A stretch of 5,451 nt of DNA from a virus (Duplodnaviria > Heunggongvirae > Uroviricota > Caudoviricetes): IMG/VR virus record IMGVR_UViG_2541047751_000012; one strand, given 5' to 3'. The notes under the pieces were generated by a model, which made no database searches, was not told the origin of the DNA, and saw only the letters and a list, made by a program, of their open reading frames with translations. Of this stretch, positions 1-5,451 are shown piece by piece. Both the position numbers and the translations under genes were made by a program. The number at the start of each line of letters is the position of its first letter. Position 1 is the first letter of the stretch.

Positions 1-1143
1 CTATGCTGTTTTGATATCTACGATAATCCAGTCTTTACCACGATCATCATTGTATCGGTCGGTCATTTTTCTGGATTTATGACCTAACAACTTTTGCGTA
101 TCCAGACCCTGTTCCCGATATAACCGTTCTGACAGAGATCGCTGCTCATGAAATGTGGGCGCAGTTCCTGGCTCCCATTTTATGCCACATTTTTCCCTGG
201 CCTTTTTAAAAGCCGTTGTAAGAGTATTTGCAGACACCTGGTCTCCTCTGTTTGCTTGAGAGGTAGTGTGACGGTAATGGACCAGATATTTACTAACAAC
301 AGCATCCCTGCACTGAGATATAACTTCACGAAGGGTAATATTCAGAGCATCGCATTTCAGGTTAAGCGGAATAGCAAGTTTTGAACCGGTTTTTTCCTGA
401 GTAATGTGCAACATGTCGTCCCAGATATCAGAGAATTTCAAATTGCAGATATCGCCTAAACGTTGTCCAGTGACAAGAGCAAGTAGCATCCCGCATTTTA
501 AATAGGGCTGCCGTCTGCTTACGCTGTCAAATATTGCCTGCCATTCGGGCAGTGATAATCTTTGGCGGTTTACTCGATTTCGCGGTTGTTTTGTTGCCTG
601 CGCTGGGTTAAATCCTGGCGGAACATGTCCTGCGTGTTGTGCTTCTTTGAAGACGTCGATCAACACCATTCTCACGACTTGCGCCATCCTGTTATGACCT
701 TCAGCCTTTACAGCATCAATTATTTCGGCAATATCAAGTGCGGTAATATCCTTGAGGTGTTGCATTCCACAATGCTCACGGAAAAGACGAATGGGTTTGC
801 CTTTTTGCCGATAGGAGTTGGGTCTTAGTTCATTATGTTGCAGCCTGTCCTCCTGGATAGAAATATATTTATCAAGCCATTCTGTCACCGTAATGTCTGA
901 GCGCCTGCCTTTCATTCTTTCTAGACGCTCATTGACGCTTAATATTTGTCGGGTACGTTGTTCAGCAATAATGGTATTTGCTTCAGTAGCAACTTGTTTT
1001 GCTTCATTCTCATCAGTTCCTAAGCTATGAAAACGACCGGATAGTGGATGTTTGTATTGCCAATATACCTTTCCGGTTCGCTTATCTAATTTGCAATATA
1101 AATTGGGTATAGAGATTTTGTGAGATCGGGGTCTAGCAGCCAT
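1..1143 (-). CDS. int: Lambda-family tyrosine integrase (site-specific recombinase), 380 aa, apparently full length
   Basis: Complete ORF with its stop at the window edge (1-3). The translation tracks lambda Int as I recall it: N-terminal arm-binding region (MAARPRSHK...PNLY vs lambda MGRRRSHERRDLPPNLY) and a C-terminal catalytic region with VTGQRLGD, PTFHEQRSLSERLY and LLGHKS...DRYNDDRGKDW. The start overlaps the 3' end of the upstream excisionase gene by 11 nt. Confidence 0.93.
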   Translation of the reverse strand: MAARPRSHKISIPNLYCKLDKRTGKVYWQYKHPLSGRFHSLGTDENEAKQVATEANTIIAEQRTRQILSVNERLERMKGRRSDITVTEWLDKYISIQEDRLQHNELRPNSYRQKGKPIRLFREHCGMQHLKDITALDIAEIIDAVKAEGHNRMAQVVRMVLIDVFKEAQHAGHVPPGFNPAQATKQPRNRVNRQRLSLPEWQAIFDSVSRRQPYLKCGMLLALVTGQRLGDICNLKFSDIWDDMLHITQEKTGSKLAIPLNLKCDALNITLREVISQCRDAVVSKYLVHYRHTTSQANRGDQVSANTLTTAFKKAREKCGIKWEPGTAPTFHEQRSLSERLYREQGLDTQKLLGHKSRKMTDRYNDDRGKDWIIVDIKTA

Positions 1144-1369
1144 CAGCGATTATCCGTTGGAGTTTTGGGTTTGCGTTTATTGGGAGTTGCGGTTCTGCAA
1201 GCGTTCCTACAAAACGGGAATTTCGGTCAATCATCCAGTAGCGACCAACTTTTATAGCGGGTGGGGCCATCATTTTCCCTTGCGCGTATTTTTTCAGAAC
1301 TCGCTCACTTGGTGCTAAGTCCCCAAATTCTTCTTTAGCCCAGTCCTGTAAAGTGATTAGTCGAGACAT
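1133..1369 (-). CDS. xis: Excisionase (Xis-like recombination directionality factor), 78 aa
   Basis: Small ORF immediately upstream of int, overlapping it by 11 nt as in lambda xis-int. Strong Shine-Dalgarno (AAGAGGAGGA) 4-5 nt before the ATG. The N-terminus (MSRLITLQDW) resembles the lambda Xis start (..LTLQEW..). Family assignment is from position and partial recall. Confidence 0.8.
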   Translation of the reverse strand: MSRLITLQDWAKEEFGDLAPSERVLKKYAQGKMMAPPAIKVGRYWMIDRNSRFVGTLAEPQLPINANPKLQRIIADGC

Positions 1370-1508
1370 TTGTCCTCCTCTTAGCTGCTGAGGGAGTTTG
1401 TGACCGATATATCTGACATGATATTAAGCTCATGGCAGGTACATCTCTTGACTGGTCATAGAGATAAATTTAATGCTGAGAAATGCAGTATTGAATTTAT
1501 CAATTTTT

Positions 1509-1748
1509 CTATTTCCTGCGTATGGCACGTAACTTCTTAATGTGTTCTGCTGTTTCGATCTCTTCAGCTATCCGATCTGCGTCAGCTTTATTCACAGGTT
1601 CAAAGTCATGATTAAAGCGGAACATGCTGGCGATACATGTTCTGCCTTTTCGGATGTAGTGAACTTTGTTGTGAGTGGAACGCAGGATTTTGCAGGGAGT
1701 GCCGTGGTGGTCGACGTACCAGGTGTTAGGGTAAATCACTCTGAACAT
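1509..1748 (-). CDS. Small prophage accessory protein, 79 aa, function unknown (possibly a DUF4222-type protein; uncertain)
   Basis: ORF with a plausible AAGG Shine-Dalgarno 6 nt before the ATG, same strand as the operon, basic C-terminal tail. Sits upstream of xis, where lambdoid phages carry small accessory genes. The family name is an unverified recollection. Confidence 0.6.
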   Translation of the reverse strand: MFRVIYPNTWYVDHHGTPCKILRSTHNKVHYIRKGRTCIASMFRFNHDFEPVNKADADRIAEEIETAEHIKKLRAIRRK

Positions 1749-1773
1749 TCTTGACCTTGTGTTGTGCGGATTG

Positions 1774-2058
1774 TTATTCAGTGCCGATATTTACCTTTAT
1801 CGCGTATACCTTTACCGGTTTATCACCGAAGTGCGGATGTGTGATTGTCTTCACTTCATATCCGTCATACGGAACATCAACTCTGCGGCTGGAATCGTCG
1901 CGCTTCGGATATCCCTTTGTGATAATCAGGCGGTCATGCTTACGGTTAACGAGGCGCTTTTTCCAGTAGTCATTACACAGGCGATACTCTTCCGTTTTCT
2001 CTCCGCGAATCATGGCATCGAAGTATTCACCTTTAACGGCAAGTTGCAGGTTAGCCAC
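1774..2058 (-). CDS. Small protein with an ASCH/PUA-like (DUF3850-like) N-terminal signature, 94 aa if started at the GTG
   Basis: The six-frame ORF extends to 2142 but would overlap the upstream gene by about 90 nt. An in-frame GTG at 2058-2056 is preceded by a perfect AAGGAG with 6-nt spacing and overlaps the upstream stop by 8 nt. The segment EYFDAMIRGEKTEEYRLCNDYW fits the ASCH-like pattern (xYFxAvxxGxKxxExR) as I remember it. Confidence 0.55.
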   Translation of the reverse strand: MANLQLAVKGEYFDAMIRGEKTEEYRLCNDYWKKRLVNRKHDRLIITKGYPKRDDSSRRVDVPYDGYEVKTITHPHFGDKPVKVYAIKVNIGTE

Positions 2059-2791
2059 GGTTAACTCCTTGCTGTGTGGCGTCGAGTAATAAATCCCACA
2101 ACCGCTGAGAGCAATTTCCGCATGTACAGCGTTGACCCACAACGTTTATCGCGTTGCTGATTTCCGGCGTTACCTGTTTAGGAACCATAACCCAACCATC
2201 CGGAGTTACCGGAAGCGAGAACGGCAGCACATCTCTGTGAACAAGTTTTTGCTGTGACAGGTTATCCAGAACTTTCTGTACTGCTGCATCACCGAATACA
2301 CCAAGCGCATCTGCCATAACTCCTACAACCTGATAAGCCTCAGCGCATACCGTGGATAAACCATCCGGAATTACCGGAGAGTTGCCGGGTTCTTTAATGT
2401 GCAAGCGAGGCTCACCATCTTTTGGCTCAGGCCACTGGCGCTCCATGTTGATCTTCAATTTATCTTCCATAGCAACGGTAATTTCAGCATCGCTGATGCC
2501 AGCACGGCGCTGTGCATCCCACAACAGAAACTGCATATCAGCCCACTCGCTAAGATCGTCTGGTTCGGCTGCGGCTTCCAGTGCCTCTTTTGAGAGGTGT
2601 TTCAGTGGACCAATGGGGCCAACGCAGCCAAATGTGGAGTCAGACCATTTGGCATGCTCGTGGCGAATCTGTTCGCGTTCCAGTGATGCCAGTGCAATTC
2701 GTGCTAGTTCCATTTGTTCGCCACGAGTAAGCCCGTTTTCAAGCGGATTTTTAATGAACAATTCAATACGTTCTTTGGTAATAGTGGTCAT
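2051..2791 (-). CDS. Modular prophage protein of unknown function, 246 aa; paralog of the 2999-3778 gene
   Basis: Long ORF with a GAGGA Shine-Dalgarno. Its ATG overlaps the stop of the upstream small gene (ATGA). It shares an N-terminal region (..ELARIALASLEREQ vs ..AYEIALASLEENP) and an NSPVIP motif with the 2999-3778 product. It also contains an internal repeat, PVIPDGL / PVTPDGW. Confidence 0.75.
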   Translation of the reverse strand: MTTITKERIELFIKNPLENGLTRGEQMELARIALASLEREQIRHEHAKWSDSTFGCVGPIGPLKHLSKEALEAAAEPDDLSEWADMQFLLWDAQRRAGISDAEITVAMEDKLKINMERQWPEPKDGEPRLHIKEPGNSPVIPDGLSTVCAEAYQVVGVMADALGVFGDAAVQKVLDNLSQQKLVHRDVLPFSLPVTPDGWVMVPKQVTPEISNAINVVGQRCTCGNCSQRLWDLLLDATQQGVNRG

Positions 2792-2997
2792 GTGTTAATC
2801 CTCAAAACTTTATGCCCGGGCGCAAAAGTACGTGTTTTGTCTTTGCTTATTCGCCACCCGTCTTTACGGGCCTCTTTTGCACAACCAGACCATGACGTAC
2901 CGATATACTCACCGAAGTCTGGCACTGGATATACACCTTCCGTACACTGGCGACAATCACAATAGAGATGCATGGTGTAACTTGCGGCAATAGCCAT
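2788..2997 (-). CDS. Small Cys-rich protein, 69 aa, putative zinc ribbon; function unknown
   Basis: The six-frame ORF reaches 3039, but that would overlap the upstream gene. The ATG at 2997-2995 lies 1 nt after the upstream stop with AAGAGAG just upstream. The product (MAIAASYTMHLYCDCRQC...SGC...) has a CxCxxC cluster plus one more Cys. Its stop overlaps the next gene's ATG (ATGA). Confidence 0.55.
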   Translation of the reverse strand: MAIAASYTMHLYCDCRQCTEGVYPVPDFGEYIGTSWSGCAKEARKDGWRISKDKTRTFAPGHKVLRINT

Positions 2998-2998
2998 A

Positions 2999-3778
2999 TC
3001 ACTCTCTTTTTCCCTGAAGCATGGCAGCGTGGCAGGCATCCTCTACGCCCTTAACTGCATCTGCGCAGTAGTTATAGCGATTGCATTCCACTAACTTCTG
3101 CCTGAGATTTTCAATTGCTTGCGCGACATCAGCCTGTATTACAGGAACTGGCGGAACGGCTGTCTGCTGCTCTCGAACGTCATTAGTCGCTATCGGTTCT
3201 GCTGCCAACTGACTGGCATATTTGTTAATGGTAACGATAAGCTCTTGCTCAGCCTCATCCAGACAATCACCGATACCTCGCCTGTCGCCGTCAAAATCAT
3301 CGAAATCAGCACGAACTCTGGCAAATTTCAGGATTGCGGACAACACCTCACCAGGAATTACCGGAGAGTTGGTTGACGTTTCCGAAATTTCCCGAAAATT
3401 ATTGGTTGACGAATTCGCGTTTTCCCGAAAGTTTCCGGCATGAAGCATAGCCGCGCGGCAGGCGTTCCAGCCTTCATCAAAACCGACTATGCCATTATTT
3501 AAAGTCGGACGAGCATCTGGCACCACCGGCACTGGCTTGGCTATATATAGCGGCTGAACATACCAACCCTTTGATAACCAACTGTCAGCAATGTTTTTAC
3601 TCCTCGTTATTGCCGGAATACCTAAGCCATTGTCTGAATGCAGCCATGCCACCGGATTCTCTTCCAGCGATGCCAGAGCAATTTCATAAGCCCGGCGCTC
3701 AACATTGTCTCGCACATCCAAACTGCTGATACGCTCTTTGATTTCTTTAATCAGTTCTTTGTCGGTAAAAGTGCTCAT
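2999..3778 (-). CDS. Modular prophage protein of unknown function, 259 aa; paralog of the 2051-2791 gene; contains an 11-aa tandem repeat
   Basis: The six-frame ORF starts at 3799, but the ATG at 3778-3776 (MSTFTDKELIK...) has a GGAGA Shine-Dalgarno at about 6 nt and sits 1 nt after the Ea22-like stop. It shares the N-terminal helix and the NSPVIP motif with the 2051-2791 product, with an 18-nt identical DNA core. It carries the internal repeat NFRENANSSTN / NFREISETSTN. Confidence 0.75.
   Translation of the reverse strand: MSTFTDKELIKEIKERISSLDVRDNVERRAYEIALASLEENPVAWLHSDNGLGIPAITRSKNIADSWLSKGWYVQPLYIAKPVPVVPDARPTLNNGIVGFDEGWNACRAAMLHAGNFRENANSSTNNFREISETSTNSPVIPGEVLSAILKFARVRADFDDFDGDRRGIGDCLDEAEQELIVTINKYASQLAAEPIATNDVREQQTAVPPVPVIQADVAQAIENLRQKLVECNRYNYCADAVKGVEDACHAAMLQGKRE
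3369..3434 (-). repeat. Two-copy imperfect 33-bp tandem repeat inside the 2999-3778 CDS
   Basis: ttggttgacgtttccgaaatttcccgaaaatta versus ttggttgacgaattcgcgttttcccgaaagttt, about 24/33 identical and in frame (11 codons each), encoding NFRENANSSTN / NFREISETSTN on the minus strand. Confidence 0.7.
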
Positions 3779-3779
3779 A

Positions 3780-4544
3780 TCAATCTCCATTGGTATCAAT
3801 GTTTACAGCCTGACAAGACTCTTTGAGCACCCAGTCAATAGCGTCTTTCCATGCCTCTGTTTCGACTGGTGGATTTTCACGCTTAACCTGTTCATAGAAG
3901 CGCACTGCTTTAACCAGTCCTTCCGGTACTACTGGTGATGGCTGTTTAGCTTCTAAATCAGCAATTCTGTCAACCACGGCATCGACAGCATCTGAAAAGC
4001 CGAACCAGTTGCTCCACTCCGGCTCATCCCCGGTTGCTGCAAAGTACATATCTGCTAAAGCAGATTCAGCATGGTCACGCTCGTTAATGAGTTGCTCTTC
4101 GCTTTTCTCCAGTTCAGCAATACGCTTACCCCCATCCGAGATAACACCTTCGTAATACTCACGCTGCTCGTTGAGTTTTGATTTTGTCTCCTCAAGCTCA
4201 ACTCTCAGCTTCCCAACAGTAAGAGCAATATCCTCGTTCTCCTGGTCGCGGCGTTTTATGTATTGCTGGTTTCTTTCCCGTTCATCCAGCAGTGCCAGCA
4301 CAGTAGCCGGATTGGCTGCGGCGATGAATTCAGCATTGGCCTGCTGTTCCATTTGGAAATCTTCATCGAAACCGCTTTCTGGATGCGCTCCTTCAATTCT
4401 GCAAATGGGAATATATCCAGCAACTTCACGATGAATTAGCGCATAATCACCATCAAATCGGCTCTCTCCATATTCGAGCGACCACTCACCACACGTTGCT
4501 TTTTCTGCCGCTTCACGCAGTGCCTGATAGTTAATTTCGCTCAC
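3780..4544 (-). CDS. Ead/Ea22-like coiled-coil protein, 254 aa
   Basis: Long ORF whose N-terminus (MSEINYQALREAAEKATCGEWS) matches my recollection of Ea22-like prophage proteins, with a central charged, coiled-coil-like region (ELEETKSKLNEQREYYE...ELEKSEEQL). The start codon is GTG (4544-4542), overlapping the upstream TraR-like stop (GTGA), with GAGAGG upstream. Confidence 0.8.
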   Translation of the reverse strand: MSEINYQALREAAEKATCGEWSLEYGESRFDGDYALIHREVAGYIPICRIEGAHPESGFDEDFQMEQQANAEFIAAANPATVLALLDERERNQQYIKRRDQENEDIALTVGKLRVELEETKSKLNEQREYYEGVISDGGKRIAELEKSEEQLINERDHAESALADMYFAATGDEPEWSNWFGFSDAVDAVVDRIADLEAKQPSPVVPEGLVKAVRFYEQVKRENPPVETEAWKDAIDWVLKESCQAVNIDTNGD

Positions 4545-4762
4545 TTCGAACCTCTCTGTTTACTGATAAGCTCCAGATCCTCCTGGCAACTTGCACAAGT
4601 CCGACAACCCTGAACGACCAGGCGTCTTCGTTCATCTATGGGATCGCCACACTCACAACAATGAGTGGCGGATATAGTCTGGTAGTTCAGACGACGCATT
4701 TTTATTGCTGTATTGCGCTGTAATTCTTCAATTTCTGATGCTGAATCAATGATGTCCGCCAT
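4541..4762 (-). CDS. TraR/DksA-family C4 zinc-finger protein (lambda orf73-like), 73 aa
   Basis: The translation has the TraR-type motif C-x2-C-x14-C-x2-C (..CCECGDPIDERRRLVVQGCRTCASCQ..), which aligns by eye with F-plasmid TraR (..CEACGNPIPEARR...CVECQ..). The size and the position in the early-left region are consistent with lambda orf73. Confidence 0.85.
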   Translation of the reverse strand: MADIIDSASEIEELQRNTAIKMRRLNYQTISATHCCECGDPIDERRRLVVQGCRTCASCQEDLELISKQRGSK

Positions 4763-4810
4763 CTTTCATTAATCCCTGAATTGTTGGTTAATACGCTTGA
4801 GGGTGAATGC

Positions 4811-4845
4811 GAATAATAAAAAAGGAGCCTGTAGCTCCCTGATGA
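4811..4845 (-). terminator. Putative Rho-independent terminator on the minus strand
   Basis: On the minus strand: AGGGAGC-tacag-GCUCC(uu) hairpin (5 G/C-rich pairs plus possible G-U and A-U) followed directly by UUUUUUAUUAUU. On the plus strand the hairpin is preceded by an A-run instead, so it is orientation-specific to the operon direction. Located 16-50 nt after the stop of the 4861 gene. Confidence 0.5.
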
Positions 4846-4860
4846 TTTTGCTTTTCATGT

Positions 4861-5076
4861 TCACCGTTCCTTAAAGACGCCGTTTAACATGCCGATCGCC
4901 AGGCTTAAATGAGTCGGTGTGAATCCCATCAGCGTTACCGTTTCGCGGTGCTTCTTTAGTACGCTACGGCAAATGTCATCGACGTTTTTATCCGGAAACT
5001 GCTGTCTGGCTTTTTTGATTTCAGAATTAGCCTGACGGGCAATGCTGCGAAGGGCGTTTTCTTGCTGAGGTGTCAC
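4861..5076 (-). CDS. Hypothetical small phage protein; 71 aa if started at GTG 5076, or 93 aa if started at ATG 5142
   Basis: The ORF is clear from 4861; the start is ambiguous. The ATG at 5142 has no Shine-Dalgarno and gives a Cys-rich, odd-looking N-terminus (MHFSGSGLHILCAYACRHGACS). The GTG at 5076-5074 overlaps the stop of a 27-aa ORF (GTGA), matching the coupling pattern of the rest of the operon. The C-terminal 70 aa look like a normal soluble protein; I do not recognise the family. Confidence 0.5.
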   Translation of the reverse strand: MTPQQENALRSIARQANSEIKKARQQFPDKNVDDICRSVLKKHRETVTLMGFTPTHLSLAIGMLNGVFKER

Positions 5077-5156
5077 TGAACAAGCCCCATGTCGGCAAGC
5101 ATAAGCACACAGAATATGAAGCCCGCTGCCAGAAAAATGCATTCAGTGGTTGTCAT
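5073..5156 (-). CDS. Candidate 27-aa hydrophobic small protein (MTTTECIFLAAGFIFCVLMLADMGLVQ)
   Basis: Short ORF missing from the six-frame track. Its ATG (5156-5154) overlaps the TGA of the truncated upstream reading frame (ATGA) and its TGA overlaps the GTG of the next gene (GTGA). The product is dominated by one hydrophobic stretch of transmembrane length. No strong Shine-Dalgarno (GAGAGA at about 6-7 nt). Confidence 0.25.
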   Translation of the reverse strand: MTTTECIFLAAGFIFCVLMLADMGLVQ

Positions 5157-5241
5157 ACCTGGTCTCTCTCATCTGCTTCTGCTTTCGCCACCATCATTTC
5201 CAGCTTTTGTGAAAGGGATGTGGCTAACGTATGAAATTCTT
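5153..5241 (-). pseudogene. 3' remnant (about 28 codons) of a minus-strand phage gene, apparently truncated by the IS insertion
   Basis: An open frame (..EFHTLATSLSQKLEMMVAKAEADERDQV*) runs from the IS boundary to a TGA at 5155-5153, with no start codon context at its 5' end. That end abuts the IS left terminus at about 5242. The identity of the disrupted gene is unknown. Confidence 0.3.
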
Positions 5242-5451
5242 TGAACCGCCCCGGGAATCCTGGAGACTAAACTTCCTGAGAAAGAGGTAAACAGGATGAC
5301 TAAAAATACTCGTTTTTCCCCCGAAGTCCGTCAACGGGCAGTCCGTATGGTTCTGGAAAGTCAGAGCGAATATGACTCACAATGGGCGACAATTTGTTCC
5401 ATTGCTCCAAAGATTGGCTGTACGCCGGAGACTCTGCGTGTCTGGGTTCGC
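5242..5451 (+). mobile_element. IS3-family insertion sequence, left end (IS629/IS1203-like from memory); continues beyond the window
   Basis: A terminal sequence TGAACCGCCCCGGGAATCCTGGAGACTAAACTTCC begins at 5242, followed 54 nt later by an orfA-type gene. This matches my recollection of the IS629 left inverted repeat and leader. The change in gene orientation and content at this point is abrupt. Confidence 0.8.
5296..5451 (+). CDS. IS3-family transposase OrfA (helix-turn-helix), N-terminal 52 codons; partial at window end
   Basis: ATG at 5296 preceded by GAAAGAGG at about 8 nt. The translation [52 protein letters not shown] matches the IS629-type OrfA N-terminus as I recall it. Open to the end of the window. 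Confidence 0.85.

Follow-up and report, generated by a model that had tools for sequence, protein, structure and literature searches.

A short in-frame junction in modular early genes of a phage-21-like prophage as a probable site of domain exchange

The window analyzed here is a stretch of 5,451 nucleotides (nt) from a virus of the class Caudoviricetes (IMG/VR record IMGVR_UViG_2541047751_000012), and the element in question is an 18-nt core that is identical in two of its genes: gene 1, which encodes a DUF550 protein of 246 amino acids (aa), and gene 2, which encodes a 259-aa protein. The core probably belongs to a conserved homology patch that is reused for in-frame domain exchange, with conversion keeping the patch uniform. 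An initial interpretation made from the letters alone (the sequence-only reading) had proposed either a recombination linker that drives module shuffling or a structurally constrained motif. The first proposal is supported by homology breakpoints that cluster at the core, by synonymous sites that are nearly fixed and by a natural hybrid gene with a crossover in the 18-mer; that the core causes the shuffling is what we infer from this combination. The junction copies in the window are as follows.

2367 to 2384, minus strand: core copy 1, (G)NSPVIP in the 246-aa DUF550 protein; exact match.
2360 to 2386, minus strand: extended junction 1, GGC AAC TCT CCG GTA ATT CCG GAT GGT (GNSPVIPDG), between the end of PF04447 (N137) and the next module.
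3354 to 3371 (23-nt version, 3349 to 3371), minus strand: core copy 2, (T)NSPVIP in the 259-aa protein.
2192 to 2215, minus strand: third, diverged junction, CTT CCG GTA ACT CCG GAT GGT TGG (LPVTPDGW), ahead of the last module of the 246-aa protein; 23–24 homology ends at 2192.

The 18-mer GGAATTACCGGAGAGTTG was found at both full positions as exact plus-strand matches, and no further match with three or fewer mismatches was present in the window. None of 200 dinucleotide shuffles of the window gave even one match, so the identity is not due to chance. At 91%, it extends to 23 nt (2362–2384 versus 3349–3371). Read on the minus strand, as had been proposed, both copies are CAACTCTCCGGTAATTCC and encode NSPVIP at residues 137–142 of the two proteins; the preceding residue is G in copy 1 and T in copy 2. 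The flanks are as diverged as claimed, with 11 of 35 and 10 of 40 bases identical outside the core, which is the random level. The claimed third copy is also real, but the position of about 2194–2213 given for it was off by approximately 2 nt; it is 74% identical to the 23-mer (at 2197–2219). All three copies have the same orientation, and the two full copies form direct repeats 987 nt (3 × 329) apart in nearly adjacent genes. The description of these genes as paralogs was too strong because BLASTP between them is not significant (E = 0.2) and only the short islands NSPVIP and IALASLE are common to both; genes 1 and 2 are two members of a modular family and have only junction motifs in common. 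An imperfect 33-nt tandem repeat (3369–3433, minus strand, 78%), coding for NFRENANSST / NNFREISETST, directly abuts core copy 2. It looks like an insertion into the junction because relatives have ACRAAMLQAG followed at once by NSPVIPDGW.

Breakpoints were mapped at loci picked by a flanking domain only, and not by the linker, to avoid circularity. With the DUF550 peptide of gene 1 (aa 45–131) as query, 80 loci were obtained: homology on the C-terminal side ended at 2359–2365 in 53, at 2192 in 23 and elsewhere in two, and ran through in two, which places 76 of the 78 homology ends on one or other linker copy in gene 1. With the gene 2 C-terminal module as query, 79 loci were obtained, of which 31 ended exactly at 3371 (31 of 75 homology ends), 44 ended at 3451–3475, where an ACRAAML motif lies, and four ran through. 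Distinct sequence classes beyond each hot spot were counted to discount clonal copies, and the core (2359–2365) had the most, with 16 classes compared with ten at 2192 and six at 3371. Matches in complete E. coli genomes likewise ended at window positions 2359–2361, 2192 and 3371. The clustering expected of a recombination linker was thus observed in the relatives of both genes. Further breakpoint hot spots were the beginnings and ends of genes, together with the IALASLE island (2699).

These positions coincide with the borders of protein modules. Gene 1 consists of an N-terminal leader, a DUF550 / dATP-dGTP pyrophosphohydrolase domain (PF04447, aa 42–137; 141.8 bits against a cut-off of 23), a linker, a helical mini-module, a second linker and a C-terminal module. 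In gene 2, a leader related to that of gene 1 is followed by a middle module ending WNACRAAMLHAG, the NFRE repeat, the linker and a C-terminal module. PF04447 ends at N137 of NSPVIP, and PF04448 (DUF551), which many relatives carry directly after the linker, starts at the G/W of PDGW. DUF551 itself was not found in genes 1 and 2 at the gathering threshold. In an alignment of gene 1 relatives, the C-terminal modules are swapped after PDGW. Some carrier proteins at first appeared to end right after the linker (GWLDKL followed by two stop symbols), but this was the wrong frame; in the correct frame, DUF551 begins PDGWISCSERMP just after the linker. The DUF551 modules of gene 1 relatives have conserved ends, PDGWISCSERMP and THWMPLPEPPQE, and a highly variable middle of differing length, and so resemble cassettes with fixed borders.

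The junction is widespread. The collections were sampled, so that counts refer to the matches listed and class counts depend on the clustering thresholds. The exact 18-mer occurred in at least 120 viral contigs in a scan of IMG/VR. Among the matches listed, 113 occurrences had full flanks; when 200 nt on each side were clustered at 80% identity, these fell into 51 left and 53 right classes in 80 combinations, and the DUF550 flank alone was joined to six different partners. A wider, de-duplicated set gave 94 × 94 flank classes. This pattern fits the "linker" version of the modular theory, and not illegitimate joining, because one short sequence connects partners that show no relationship on either side. 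The consensus junction is GGC AAC TCT CCG GTR ATT CCG GAT GGT TGG, a proline-rich, in-frame GNSPVIPDGW of approximately 27–30 nt. The 163 unique carrier proteins among the matches listed (76–424 aa) are visibly modular: an N-terminal leader (MTTITKER...ARIALASLEAEP), one or more middle modules (for example, DUF550 or modules ending WNACRAAMLQ), the linker (A)GNSPVIPDGW and a C-terminal module, which can be DUF551 (WISCSERMPE...THWMPLPxPPQE), VMVPKEPTPEM...AMLAAAP or a Cys-rich module. PHROG profiles matched genes 1 and 2 piecewise to the same mosaic families (phrog_60, 3323, 28084 and 12449), all of "unknown function" only.

The exact 23-mer AACTCTCCGGTRATTCCGGATGG was present in 23 contigs of approximately 19 named species with differing flanks, among the matches listed. 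Its carriers include Enterobacter, Trabulsiella, Scandinavium, Shimwellia, Pseudocitrobacter, Hafnia, Brenneria and Ca. Erwinia dacicola, which we assign to four families of Enterobacterales. The linker family is large and comprises modular early-region proteins from the xis-exo interval of lambdoid prophages, together with proteins of P1-like phage-plasmids of Enterobacterales. An example of the latter is the 86-kb E. coli plasmid p1_025985 (NZ_CP043288.1), in which a DUF550 gene and the next open reading frame (ORF) match window positions 2192–3039 at 98.3%; the homology begins exactly at 2192, the PVTPDGW junction. Beside the match lie phd/doc, an S24 peptidase and a homologue of pol III theta, which we take to be P1-type genes, and the plasmid is presumably a P1-like phage-plasmid. 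The sharing of this segment implies that module exchange spans lambdoid and P1-like elements.

In Shimwellia pseudoproteus DSM 3038 (NZ_WBXP01000006.1), a CRISPR array at 4871–6183 of the retrieved stretch has at least 20 copies of the 28-nt repeat TTTCTAAGCTGCCTGTACGGCAGTGAAC, presumably type I-F-like, with a 60-nt period. One of its 32-nt spacers, AACTCTCCGGTAATTCCGGATGGTTGGATACC (5401–5432 of the retrieved stretch), is the linker itself (NSPVIPDGWIP); a spacer against the shared linker patch could match many different prophages at once. A contig labelled Chryseobacterium sp. 18061 also carries an enterobacterial-type DUF550-linker gene, in which the DNA around the linker is the same as in Scandinavium hiltneri, and this contig is probably an assembly contamination or mislabelled.

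Two hybrids of the window copies were built in silico and searched for in 5,426 complete E. coli genomes. The hybrid with the left flank of copy 1, the core and the right flank of copy 2 was found at 80% coverage or more in 19 genomes; in one of these, the match was two pieces 716 bp apart, and in approximately 18, it was a contiguous 188 nt. It is the expected product of a deletion between direct repeats 987 nt apart. In strain 2014C-3011, the hybrid is a single ORF composed, in order, of the gene 2 N-terminal part (leader ... WNACRAAMLQSGNFRENKNSSTNNFREIAETST), NSPVIPDG, the C-terminal part of gene 1 (LSTVCAEAYQ ... PVTPDGW) and a DUF551 module. Its DNA is 100% copy-1 type through CATCC and the core and approximately 93% copy-2 type immediately beyond. 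Because the type switches from copy 1 to copy 2 across the core, the crossover is placed inside the 18 nt.

The strongest competing explanation is constraint on the protein only: GNSPVIPDGW would be required as a peptide, the identity of the DNA would reflect codon preference and descent, and joints made illegitimately would have been selected at the domain border. The proposal of a structurally constrained motif is right to the extent that the peptide is an interdomain linker, lying exactly between Pfam domains. An AlphaFold2 model of the 246-aa protein (20-sequence alignment; mean pLDDT 39.9) places both linkers, at low confidence, in predicted coil between helical segments, and some joints cut the motif at other points (GNSPVI followed by GVD, and GNSPVIPD followed by DVL), as selection on the protein would allow. 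The codons point the other way. A scan for the peptide PVIPDGW in any codons returned almost one DNA, AAC TCT CCG GT(G/A) ATT CCG GAT GGT TGG. Over 113 unique contexts, the information content rose from approximately 0.1–0.4 bits at position −12 to 0.9–1.6 bits over the G, N and S codons, which were not selected, and third positions in the linker reached 1.4–1.8 bits, with the exception of the Val codon wobble.

For a comparison independent of the 23-mer, DUF550 genes were selected solely by similarity to a Scandinavium-type protein. Their diverged DUF550 domains have 76–79% nucleotide identity to the window and use the same codon at 45% of conserved residues, whereas in the adjacent linker of the ten diverged loci with a GNS-type linker, the G, N, S, P and I codons were those of the window in 46 of 48 cases; only the Val codon differed (GTG). 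Synonymous variation at the motif is therefore not like that elsewhere in the gene, in keeping with the recombination-linker proposal. Serine was encoded by TCT in 171 of 174 de-duplicated contexts; TCT is a minor Ser codon of E. coli. Nor is the peptide strict within one lineage, in which NYPVIPS, NSPLIPG, NSTVIPG and NSRLIPG occur. Given the codon data and these tolerated variants, a purely protein-level constraint is unlikely, and two further observations speak against it: a single 18-mer linking flanks that are unrelated on both sides is not expected from illegitimate joining, and the hybrid crossover falls inside the identity. In the wider sample, the GTA and GTG alleles of the Val codon were mixed within both N-side and C-side classes, which implies that exchanges, or recurrent mutation, separate this allele from both flanks.

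We therefore favor exchange at a conserved homology patch, which would operate as follows. The 18-nt core would be the best-conserved part of an in-frame junction of approximately 27–30 nt that acts as a portable homology patch. Recombination between two such patches, in different phages, prophages or neighbouring genes, would join N-terminal modules to foreign C-terminal modules while preserving the reading frame. Repeated exchange and conversion would keep the patch near-identical, even at synonymous sites, with unrelated DNA on either side. The exchanges would be driven by homology, most plausibly through the phage's own Red-beta/RecT-type annealing proteins, and the linker peptide itself would serve only as a flexible tether. 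We infer both this pathway and selection for the exchange role. The minimal pairing segment is 23–27 bp for Red-beta and 31–34 bp for RecA, and where homologies are short or diverged, exchange is dominated by phage recombinases of the Rad52-like type (De Paepe et al., 2014; PMC3945230). The patch length of 27–30 nt matches the Red-beta value.

Several points weigh against this explanation. The two window copies are exactly identical over 18 nt only, which is below the 23–27 bp minimum, although most pairs in the family share 27–30 nt. When proteins with one module in common and a different neighbouring module are compared, breakpoints necessarily fall at module borders, however the joints arose. 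Many of the IMG/VR contigs are near-identical prophages, so that raw counts overstate independent events, and class counts correct for this only in part. None of the 5,426 E. coli genomes yielded the reciprocal hybrid, in which the left flank comes from copy 2 and the right flank from copy 1. Synonymous constraint also extends to ACRAAML, IALASLE and HWMPLP, with mean third-position values of 1.1–1.35 bits compared with 1.5 bits for the linker; codon fixation at other conserved motifs is likewise what constraint on the protein would give. The nucleotide conservation may therefore come partly from a young, freely exchanging gene pool and not from a special property of the linker, and we dropped the idea that codon fixation is unique to the linker because these control motifs are also fixed in part. 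The quality of the structure model does not suffice to establish disorder in the linker, and the support for recombination at the linker consists of sequence comparison.

It is also conceivable, but very improbable, that the DNA or RNA is itself functional: a site-specific recombinase or homing endonuclease might act on it, or it might serve as a binding site or form a regulatory RNA structure. Nucleotide conservation does reach four bacterial families, and a small UCCGG-N5-CCGGA hairpin is possible in two copies. On the other hand, the whole window had no Rfam match at E ≤ 1, the fold z-scores were −0.6, −2.4 and −0.8, and the structure is not common to copy 2; an RNA element was dropped as a candidate because there was no such match and local folding was neither significant nor consistent. 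The copies are direct and not inverted, the window encodes no recombinase apart from the phage integrase and its excisionase, and variation is codon-phased with a free Val wobble, as in coding sequence. Least credible of all is a remnant of tandem gene duplication, with genes 1 and 2 as diverged paralogs and the core as their slowest-evolving piece: the genes do have the same direction and only an 83-aa ORF between them, similar N-terminal leaders and the motif at the same residues, but the BLASTP result and random-level flanks speak against it, DUF550 in one gene faces an unrelated module at that place in the other, the six synonymous core sites would be saturated after divergence deep enough to wipe out flank similarity, and each half has close relatives elsewhere with other partners.

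The core is one of several junction motifs in these genes because the IALASLE and AC(H/R)AAML islands coincide with the hot spots at 2699, 3010–3035 and 3451–3475. The companion motifs are located as follows.

2678 to 2699, minus strand: IALASLE island of gene 1, 91% identical to 3662–3683; 18 homology ends at 2699–2701.
3662 to 3683, minus strand: IALASLE partner in gene 2; homology ends at 3657–3662.
3441 to 3463, minus strand: ACRAAML junction motif of gene 2, the next hot spot N-terminal of the core.

An 87% copy of AC(H/R)AAML at 3015–3037, near the 3′ end of gene 2, accompanies the hot spot at 3010–3035. At 3475–3527 of the window, Escherichia phage ev017, which is otherwise 99.9% identical, has a different, longer segment (4975–5050 of the retrieved stretch). 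This replacement patch is a micro-mosaic with two junction motifs, ACRAAML/W and PVPVVP, as its borders; a nearby base is also missing from ev017, in which the annotation divides the gene into two coding sequences. The 259-aa protein itself also contains KPVPVVPDA, and a second linker type, (Q)PAPVVP, stands behind some diverged DUF550 domains.

The window is the int-xis-early-left end of a phage-21-like lambdoid prophage, with all phage genes on the minus strand, and positions 1–5241 are 99.9% identical to Escherichia phages ev017 and PhiR57_1. Its genes are the following.

1 to 1143, minus strand: integrase.
1133 to 1369, minus strand: excisionase.
1509 to 1748, minus strand: DUF4222 protein.
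1774 to 2064, minus strand: 96-aa ORF, with an ASCH-domain annotation in ev017.
2051 to 2791, minus strand: gene 1, DUF550 protein, 246 aa.
2788 to 3039, minus strand: 83-aa ORF between genes 1 and 2.
2999 to 3778, minus strand: gene 2, 259 aa from the ATG at 3778, without a Pfam family.
3780 to 4544, minus strand: Ead/Ea22-like protein (PF13935, 138 bits).
4541 to 4762, minus strand: DksA/TraR zinc-finger protein.
4861 to 5142, minus strand: 93-aa ORF.

PF13935 (Ead/Ea22-like) did not match genes 1 and 2 at the gathering threshold, and only the gene at 3780–4544 passed it in the window; the C-terminal part of that gene has KQPSPVVPEGLVKAV, which is related to the PV(I/V/T)P(D/E)G motif. None of six ORFs could be assigned to an NCBIfam family, and a search of PDB chain sequences gave no match for gene 1 or gene 2. 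In ev017, the closest phage, exonuclease and RecT-like genes lie further along the same leftward gene string. Homology to ev017 stops at 5241 and is followed by TGAACCGCCCCGGG..., and a plus-strand ORF from 5296 matches the transposase helix-turn-helix domain PF01527 (transposase N terminus). This element, which we take to be of the IS3 family (IS629/IS1203-like), interrupts the early-left operon ahead of the exo/recT genes that are present in ev017.

Conserved boundary or linker sequences are an established hypothesis of the lambdoid modular theory (Susskind and Botstein; Clark et al., 2001, on the nin region; cited in PMC3029335), and PMC3029335 reports that they are not identifiable at most mosaic boundaries. 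The window junction resembles them in its short DNA-level conservation between unrelated neighbours, its location at a module border and its coincidence with mosaic breakpoints, and recombinants with an internal crossover are found as well; a role in general or phage-encoded homologous recombination has been proposed for boundary sequences, too. Classic boundary sequences are generally located at the borders of genes. The junction, in contrast, is intragenic and in frame as an interdomain linker, so that domains rather than genes would be exchanged, and it recurs with over 50 partners on each side (50–90 classes), across lambdoid prophages, P1-like plasmids and four bacterial families.

At the protein level, mosaicism is already known for the Ea22 proteins of lambda and Stx phages, in which DUF551 is a portable domain (PMC10834534). 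These Ea22 proteins likewise lie in the exo-xis region and have a common N-terminal part with swapped C-terminal domains, DUF551 among them. They differ in that PMC10834534 describes block mosaicism of proteins, in a text without the words "linker" or "recombination", and in that the core-carrying genes 1 and 2 do not match Ead_Ea22, whereas their neighbour at 3780–4544 does. The relaxed, Rad52-like recombination of PMC3945230 has the same likely machinery, Red-beta/RecT acting on short, diverged homologies. The homologies there are hundreds of bases long rather than a coding patch of 27–30 nt, and no recent exchange between lambda-like and P1-P2-Mu phages was seen there, whereas the window has the DUF550 module in common with a P1-like plasmid at 98%. 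Shufflons and the Gin/Cin/Min inversion of tail fibres also use short repeats within coding sequence to swap C-terminal segments in frame, but those repeats are inverted and confined to one locus with an adjacent dedicated recombinase; the repeats of the window are direct, dispersed among genomes and without a dedicated recombinase, unlike an inversion system. The searchable literature had no mention of the linker peptide or the junction, and a search for domain shuffling gave general context only.

It is an old and unsettled question whether phage mosaics are created by homologous exchange at short conserved sequences, or whether joints form illegitimately and are then sorted by selection. 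The junction is an unusually clean and abundant case, a coding patch of approximately 30 nt with more than 50 partners on each side and crossovers that can be mapped inside it, and it makes this question directly testable. It also explains the inconsistent annotation of "DUF550/DUF551/Ea22-like" genes, and it is a natural design rule for in-frame domain swapping. In a broader and more tentative version, which we regard as rather doubtful, the linker would be a maintained recombination signal: second-order selection would hold the patch of approximately 30 nt and its IALASLE/ACRAAML companions for Red/RecT reassortment of the effector domains of early proteins, possibly with host-takeover or counter-defence roles, across lambdoid and P1-like phages of many enterobacterial genera.

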